Below are positions 7,309-8,372 of a stretch of DNA of 57,617 bases, one piece after another. Below the pieces are notes generated by a model that saw only the letters and a list, made by a program, of their open reading frames with translations, ran no database searches and was not told the origin of the DNA. Every line of letters starts with the position of its first letter. Positions within the stretch are counted from its first letter, which is position 1. Made by a program: the position numbers and the translations under genes. This DNA is from a virus: IMG/VR virus record IMGVR_UViG_3300029192_000002; one strand, written 5' to 3'.

Positions 7309-8372
7309 TGTTCGTAAACCCGTGTAGCCACTTGCGCCATCATAACAGGTGGAACACTCATGCCACAAATATAATGAGGGGAAAATCCGCAAAAATCATA
7401 GTCTTGTGGAAACGTGGATATATTACATACCTCAGAAGTGGATAGATAGACGGGGCTTTTAAAAGGTATGGTGCTATCTACATGGGCTGTCAAAGTATTG
7501 CAAACCTTATTTTCATATAGGTAATTTTGATTGAAAAAACCTCTTTTACCAGTCAGTTTAAGATAAGCTGCTGCCATATCTATATCACCTTCTTTTCTGT
7601 TATCAAACATTTCTTTCATGCGTTTGCCGTATGGCTTACCCTCATAGTCCGCAAATTCTCCGTAATAAATTTCCGGCTCGTTGAAGTCCATATTTATATG
7701 TGGCTCAACATTAAACAAGTCGGACACTTTCAAGAAATTCGCTCCTAAATCATGCCTGATACAAACAAAGAATACCCGGTTTCGCATTTGTGGGACACCC
7801 ATCTTTGAGGCATCCAGCAAGAAATGTTGGCAATAATACCCAGCATTTTCAAAATCCTTGTAAATGCGCCTTACGTAGTCTATTGCATTGCCCATAAGTA
7901 AGCCTTTCACATTTTCCGCTATCACAACCTTTGGTTGCAGTGCCTTTGCCAAAGCTATGAAGTCGAAGAAAAGTGTATCAAGAACTTGTGCCGTTTGCCC
8001 CTCTCTGAACACTTTTTCTTTGCCCCAATCCTTTTCACGATTGCCGGATAAGGAGAAAGTGGAACATGGGGGTGAGCCGTCCAAAATATCCAAGCTGTAA
8101 AGTTCGGGCGGTAGCTCTCTCTCTCTCTCTCTCTCTCTCTCTCTTAGTGTCCTAATATCTTCTAAGAAGTTGAAGCGTGGTGCATGATTCGCCACGTACA
8201 CCTGATTAACTTTAGGGTCTATTTCATTGCATCCTATTACATCAAATCCGGCTAATTTATAACCCATAGTTGAACCACCACCACACGCAAAGCATGAGAA
8301 TACTTTGCCTTTATCTTTAGTGAAATTGGTTTTTGCCAATTCCCATTTATAAGGAAATTTGTGTTTACTCAT
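7290..8372 (-). CDS. dcm: DNA (cytosine-5)-methyltransferase
   Basis: C5-MTase motifs appear in order: I FSCFACGGGSTMGY, IV GSPPCSTFS, VI ENVKGL, VIII QMRNRVFFV and X GMSVPPVM. Confidence 0.93.
   Translation of the reverse strand: MSKHKFPYKWELAKTNFTKDKGKVFSCFACGGGSTMGYKLAGFDVIGCNEIDPKVNQVYVANHAPRFNFLEDIRTLRERERERERELPPELYSLDILDGSPPCSTFSLSGNREKDWGKEKVFREGQTAQVLDTLFFDFIALAKALQPKVVIAENVKGLLMGNAIDYVRRIYKDFENAGYYCQHFLLDASKMGVPQMRNRVFFVCIRHDLGANFLKVSDLFNVEPHINMDFNEPEIYYGEFADYEGKPYGKRMKEMFDNRKEGDIDMAAAYLKLTGKRGFFNQNYLYENKVCNTLTAHVDSTIPFKSPVYLSTSEVCNISTFPQDYDFCGFSPHYICGMSVPPVMMAQVATRVYEQWLSKL
8115..8144. repeat. (CT)15 dinucleotide microsatellite inside the methyltransferase ORF
   Basis: Thirty nt of uninterrupted CT, read as (AG)15 on the coding strand and encoding RERERERERE between motifs I and IV. 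Confidence 0.95.

Follow-up and report, generated by a model that had tools for sequence, protein, structure and literature searches.

Slippage at dinucleotide repeats is established knowledge, and poly-G tracts in the receptor-binding genes of Campylobacter phages are one precedent among viruses. In Bacteroides, phase variation is usually attributed to DNA inversions. In Helicobacter pylori, the orphan C5-cytosine methyltransferase gene hpyAVIBM is phase-variable and contains an (AG)4-5 repeat (PMC3411764). There, gain or loss of units truncates the product, in-frame and out-of-frame alleles coexist among strains, and the proposed role is in gene regulation and competence. Longer repeats are found in Mycoplasma mycoides, whose M.MmyCI carries (AG)12 in mod, and Type III mod genes are known to form phasevarions (PMC5909438, PMC3498834). 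In phages, the reference case is the agt glucosyltransferase gene of the virulent coliphage T2, in which an A9 homopolymer undergoes 1-nt frameshifts at about 1e-3, the mixed progeny escaping TgvAB at the price of McrA/BC (Gomez, Barrick, Waters 2025 preprint, PMC12633550). The same preprint states that phage contingency loci were unreported before; it treats homopolymers of at least 6 bases in virulent coliphages and vibriophages, with no mention of dinucleotide tracts, methyltransferases, temperate phages or Bacteroides (PMC12633550). Here, we describe an (AG)n tract that we consider likely to be a slipped-strand contingency locus, switching an orphan C5-cytosine modification enzyme of a temperate Bacteroides/Phocaeicola phage in and out of frame.

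The whole stretch of viral DNA under analysis, hereafter the window, is 57,617 nt long. Using Tandem Repeats Finder, we detected a perfect (CT)15 on the + strand at positions 8115-8144 (period 2, 15.0 copies, 100% matches, consensus CT), which reads (AG)15 on the coding strand (-), and no second perfect dinucleotide array in the window. By a simple probability calculation, the chance of a perfect 30-nt dinucleotide run in 58 kb is of the order of 1e-12. The tract lies inside an ORF of 360 aa (7290-8372, - strand), in frame, that is, ON, at n=15, whose product belongs to the C5-cytosine DNA methyltransferase family: the PF00145 C5 DNA methylase match spans residues 23-352, with 145 bits against a cut-off of 22 (E 4e-42). 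The translation contains, in order, FSCFACGGGS (motif I), SPPC (IV), ENV (VI), QMRNR (VIII) and GMSVPP (X). The repeat itself is translated as R77-E86, RERERERERE, after FSCFACGGGS and DIRTL (motif III) and before GSPPCSTFS (motif IV). It separates an N-part of 76 aa (8145-8372, - strand), bearing motif I, motif II (NEID) and motif III (DI), from a C-part of 274 aa plus stop (7290-8114, - strand), bearing motifs IV, VI and VIII, the target-recognition region and motif X. The initial annotation, made from the window's sequence, had placed a (CT)15 in a methyltransferase ORF between motifs I and IV and had described the RE run as standing in place of a normally short linker. Both statements were borne out. 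Indeed, repeat-free homologues have a linker of 4-5 residues at this site (KERN, KYRE, KEKE, VRRNN), and RERE also occurs among the linkers of deeper homologues. These linkers suggest that the tract originated by expansion of an AGA-GAG linker.

An AlphaFold model of the 360-aa protein, built on 38 homologues, reached a pLDDT of 87.6 and a pTM of 0.90. In this model, the repeat extends a short helix (73-81) into a loop, ahead of strand 96-99 and of the catalytic PPC loop, with a somewhat lower pLDDT of 73-83. This location at a helix end and loop, modelled with lower pLDDT, fits tolerance of in-frame lengths of 4, 6, 8 and 10 residues. In-frame alleles are predicted to vary only in how long their surface helix-loop (RE)2-5 linker is, a variation that the fold should accommodate.

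The nearest solved structure was, by far, 8yf3, both by sequence (E 5e-46 versus 9e-18 for HaeIII) and as the top Foldseek hit. This entry is SpCmoX, the cytosine C5-carboxymethyltransferase of Synechococcus phage S-B43, which uses carboxy-SAM (PDB 8YF3, PMC12783734). A possibility was, therefore, that the enzyme under the switch installs a C5 group other than plain methyl, as CmoX does with carboxymethyl. Both proteins are phage-encoded and share their overall fold and the SPPC-S form of motif IV, S100-P101-P102-C103 aligning to S95-C98 of 8yf3. CmoX candidates are defined by this SPPC motif together with Arg350, which replaces Asn304 of M.HhaI and contacts the Cx-SAM carboxyl (PMC12783734). 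Where CmoX has this arginine (GRMVPP), the window protein has Met338 (GMSVPP); this methionine is invariant in the 38 homologues and, at a position that governs cofactor selectivity, is atypical for a methyltransferase too. CmoA (TIGR00740) was not found above cut-off in two Bacteroides genomes with such a prophage (G001, G003), in phage Versailles or in a complete relative (G034). Likewise, no CmoA-like protein and no SAM-fold or amide ligase partner was seen among the 34 window ORFs scanned, and neither a CmoA nor a CmoY partner was found for the window enzyme. SpCmoX also differs in having TGGDFLKITG, with no repeat, where the window protein has its RE run. With the defining arginine replaced and CmoA not found in the genomes and window ORFs scanned, we rejected a CmoX identity for the 360-aa protein, and the installation of some other C5 group by this enzyme appears very improbable. 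We take the product to be a putative C5 methyltransferase that depends on SAM and whose motif X is atypical. As a separate observation, three + strand ORFs in the late-early region of the window encode a ParB-like protein (49772-50587), a protein with a weak radical-SAM match (51093-52100) and a ParB_N-DUF4417 fusion (53694-54842); ParB-domain proteins have been reported alongside CmoX-type enzymes (PMC12783734).

The window corresponds to a siphophage of about 58 kb, with portal, large terminase, major head protein, tape measure and tail proteins. It further encodes RecT, a MuF-Bxa ADP-ribosyltransferase and the reverse transcriptase of a diversity-generating retroelement (DGR), whose RVT_1 domain was confirmed at 31779-32966; the same phage thus combines two different targeted hypermutation devices, the DGR and the AG tract. 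An integrase gene (36061-37383, + strand; phrog_216 integrase, E 2e-12) marks the phage as temperate. Relatives sit in Bacteroides and Phocaeicola chromosomal contigs of up to 2 Mb, and the nearest named phage, Bacteroides phage Versailles (ON453897), occurs in OMM12 mice as an active prophage of B. caecimuris I48. These three lines support the temperate lifestyle that had been proposed for this phage, and an integrase would let the switch operate in both lysogens and virions.

The methyltransferase gene shares an operon with a DUF2400/TIGR02757 gene (8365-9126, - strand; PF09674, E 6e-62); the end of this gene and the beginning of the methyltransferase gene overlap by 8 nt, stop codon against start (ATGAGTAA). 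Among solved structures, no significant match by sequence was obtained for DUF2400, which may be related to the glycosylase fold and might have a functional link with cytosine modification or repair. This DUF2400-methyltransferase arrangement was seen in the window-type lineage only, including L078-L083. Versailles-type phages are without DUF2400, and a DUF3846 gene abuts their methyltransferase gene. Beside the methyltransferase gene lie DUF2400, DUF3846 and small ORFs, with no match to a nuclease family, although a nuclease could still be encoded by a small unannotated ORF. As no adjacent nuclease is recognisable, the enzyme is treated as a presumptive orphan. Regarding hosts, McrBC-type genes were present in 3 of 31 related host genomes and Mrr-type genes in 7 of the 31, and this patchy presence indicates that hosts differ in methyl-dependent restriction.

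Next, we compared the tract across relatives. Seventy related loci were assembled from phage isolates, IMG/VR contigs, bacterial genomes and gut metagenomes, prophages included. Exact-pattern scans with the downstream flank yielded 13 viral, 3 genomic and 31 metagenomic loci, and a degenerate flank pattern added a third, more divergent lineage. Homologous tracts were found at the same codon position in all 70 loci, with n ranging from 4 to 16 units; 28 were in frame and 42 out of frame. The rule that the frame is kept only when n is divisible by 3 was verified on these relatives. Both halves of the gene lay within the contig in 57 loci: the N-part was stop-free in all 57 (76-85 aa) and the C-part in 55 (274 or 275 aa). 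Among complete out-of-frame copies, 30 of 31 kept both a 76-78-aa N-part and a 274/275-aa C-part, leaving tract length as the sole lesion. Few loci departed from this picture. L070 (n=14, out of frame, LPPD-type lineage) has a second frameshift in the C-part. L050, from another lineage, has an in-frame interrupted tract, and its contig end is apparently unrelated sequence. Two loci, L031 and L041, look broken, with the scattered 1-nt indels typical of poor assemblies, and the coverage of L031 is 1.7x. We also noticed that L058, of the LPPD-type lineage, has GSSPC instead of GSPPC. In about 70 loci, signs of secondary change were confined to L070 and L058.

The Versailles phage itself illustrated the out-of-frame state. 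Its tract is (AG)4, 22 nt shorter than that of the window, and the gene is split exactly at the tract into ORFs of 142 aa and 267 aa; only the C-terminal 795-nt CDS is annotated in the record. The same mouse-gut haplotype, with (AG)4 and out of frame, was found in three independent assemblies (L001, which is ON453897 3001-4061, L018 and L026). The (AG)4 Versailles lineage is probably locked OFF. As Versailles is nonetheless an active prophage, the gene would be dispensable in at least one host.

Length differences in a low-complexity run might be a sequencing or assembly artefact, arising from polymerase stutter or assembler collapse. Dinucleotide repeats do stutter, and the 1-nt indels that fill L031 and L041 show that some of the assemblies are poor. 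There were also two odd gene calls: in P0015, a fragment of a sodium:dicarboxylate symporter is fused to the C-part exactly at the tract, and in P0039, a 121-aa early ORF, homologous to window 9969-10334, is fused there as well (...SASDLRE|RELPP). Either these assemblies are misjoined at the tract, or genuine deletions have occurred there at AG microhomology. However, a span of 4-16 units far exceeds the one-unit changes expected of stutter, and a tract of only 30 nt fits within every read, so that it cannot be collapsed. An isolate genome with 51x coverage has n=11. As a matter of fact, independent assemblies agreed on the length for a given haplotype (n=4 in three, n=6 in five, n=15 in many samples), which shows that assembled lengths are reproducible. 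An artefact as the source of the length differences is thus extremely unlikely.

To relate changes in the tract to changes in its flanks, we used the 36 complete copies obtained with the first pattern, which over 1,050 nt of coding sequence form 15 haplotypes. Among the 62 pairs with zero substitutions over these 1,050 nt, 45 differed in n. Counting distinct lengths, we found at least 14 independent length changes within identical haplotypes versus no substitutions, which indicated that the tract mutates far faster than its surroundings. For instance, one haplotype carried n = 9, 9, 10, 10, 11, 12 and 14, and another had n=6 in five copies, n=7 in two and n=12 in one. The haplotype of the window itself recurred in L032 with n=8, out of frame, and two C-part-only gene calls (P0128, P0130) corresponded to further out-of-frame copies of exactly this haplotype. 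Some lengths were nevertheless widespread. The n=15 in-frame allele, taken as the exact protein, was indexed in 132 contigs and 148 index blocks from several gut metagenomes; n=15 was read in six contigs from six different samples/sources, and the genomes carrying it differ by a few SNPs and in the genes next to it. For the Versailles type, the n=9 allele was indexed in 400 contigs. Particular in-frame lengths can thus be persistent and common, and change at the consensus level can be slow.

A fast-mutating tract need not be an adaptive one. The AG run could be a neutral mutational hotspot, that is, a hypermutable microsatellite in a dispensable accessory gene, where frameshifts are loss-of-function accidents later removed by selection or back-slippage. 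Consistent with such non-adaptive switching, the in-frame share of 40% was close to the 1/3 expected by chance (p=0.25) in the 70-locus sample, which leaves out records close to the window (L082, for example, which comes from the IMG/VR source sample, is absent from the viral scan) and in which allele frequencies are biased. The in-frame share therefore does not directly point to selection for ON or for OFF. Moreover, ancestral linkers such as KERN, KEKE and RERE offer the repeat a simple origin, Versailles works as a prophage with its gene out of frame at n=4, and L070 has acquired a second frameshift.

Yet, the coding sequence around the tract told otherwise. Across three lineages, with pairwise dS from 0.7 to above 1.4, dN/dS was 0.06-0.10 in the C-part and 0.03-0.05 in the N-part. 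Such low values in both halves point to a function that has been repeatedly selected, and, with most copies out of frame, they argue for a frequent, selected return to ON. A neutral microsatellite is expected to gather interruptions, yet the run was pure AG in 69 of 70 loci across these saturated-dS lineages, with no synonymous variation at the Arg and Glu codons. This indicated that what is maintained is the DNA repeat and not the peptide. Finally, OFF copies showed essentially no secondary decay. A decaying pseudogene was rejected, as both halves are intact and dN/dS is low. The combination of mostly out-of-frame copies, strong purifying selection and absence of secondary lesions is predicted by a reversible switch and not by a decaying pseudogene, and a merely neutral hotspot is unlikely. 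Judged from genome comparison, the pattern across relatives is the signature of a contingency locus: a perfect intragenic tract, length polymorphism among near-identical genomes, and toggling of the frame with the rest of the gene intact. The comparison of repeat number across related genomes was strongly positive (42 of 70 loci out of frame), and the ON/OFF slipped-strand switch put forward in the initial annotation found support in otherwise intact copies and in identical flanks with different n.

How such a switch might serve the phage can be proposed as follows. Slippage while the prophage is copied or the phage replicates lytically would produce progeny with n changed by one or more units, a mixture of ON and OFF. 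A change of one or two units breaks or restores the frame; in-frame genomes would make the enzyme and out-of-frame genomes would not. Being modified, ON genomes would be protected from host restriction enzymes directed at the unmodified site, and OFF genomes would avoid modification-dependent (Type IV) restriction, together with any cost of methylating the lysogen. A mixed stock would thereby hedge its bets across hosts with unlike defences, always holding some particles fit for hosts that attack the unmodified site and others fit for hosts that attack modified DNA. We infer this bet-hedging logic by analogy with T2 agt, for which it was shown by experiment.

Alternatively, the main role of the switch could be in the prophage, where ON/OFF methylation of the host chromosome would alter host gene expression, protection of phage DNA not being its purpose. 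In favour of this reading, the phage is temperate and its prophages are widespread, phase-variable methyltransferases commonly act in this way, hpyAVIBM affects the transcriptome, and the S. aureus prophage methyltransferase PamA alters host traits. On the other hand, the window gene belongs to a leftward accessory operon beside structural genes, and it may be expressed in the lytic phase only. An effect on the host is, besides, compatible with an anti-restriction role. As the main role of the locus, it seems to us conceivable, though on balance doubtful.

The proposed switch can now be set against the described ones. It resembles hpyAVIBM in being an intragenic AG repeat that would control an orphan C5 methyltransferase, with in- and out-of-frame alleles in nature. 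It differs in repeat number (4-16 units here versus 4-5) and in its carrier, a temperate phage of Bacteroidota versus the chromosome of a Campylobacterota pathogen; the role proposed for hpyAVIBM is also not protection of phage DNA. With M.MmyCI and the Type III mod genes, the locus shares the control of a DNA methyltransferase by an intragenic simple repeat. However, those are N6-adenine Mod enzymes with a Res partner on bacterial chromosomes, whereas the enzyme here is Type II-like, modifies C5 as judged from its family, has no recognisable nuclease nearby and is carried by a phage. T2 agt is likewise a phage DNA-modification gene switched by slippage, but its reversion was shown by experiment, while for the (AG)n locus reversion is inferred.

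We found in the literature no prior description of this locus, nor of such a switch for Bacteroides phages, and neither the papers on methyltransferases of Bacteroides phages nor those on BV01-like phages mention it. Calling the locus unusual for a temperate phage was therefore fair, the 2025 preprint covering only short homopolymers in virulent phages. Collectively, we rate this as a known mechanism, repeat control of a methyltransferase, in a carrier and a phylum that are unusual for it, and its support from natural populations is exceptionally rich.

Phage contingency loci have only just been proposed, for short homopolymers in laboratory coliphages. Here, a long dinucleotide tract in a widespread family of gut temperate phages appears to behave like the slippage switches of bacterial pathogens. 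A practical consequence is that annotation pipelines split or truncate this methyltransferase gene in most genomes, as with the 795-nt CDS of Versailles. If switching is confirmed, the locus would offer a tractable system, since isolates with n=4 (B. caecimuris I48) and n=11 (B. acidifaciens DSM 15896) are at hand and n=15 prophages are common. It would allow the study of gut phages that face hosts with opposing restriction systems, and of epigenetically mixed host populations made by a prophage. One may go further and suppose that the phage family maintains the repeat by second-order selection as a heritable, reversible switch, that every lysogen population and every burst is mixed, that a phage-borne phasevarion reprograms the host methylome, and that the enzyme might even install a non-methyl group. 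All of these holding together is speculative and, in our estimation, rather unlikely. If this were true, it would concern abundant temperate phages of Bacteroides and Phocaeicola in the human and mouse gut.
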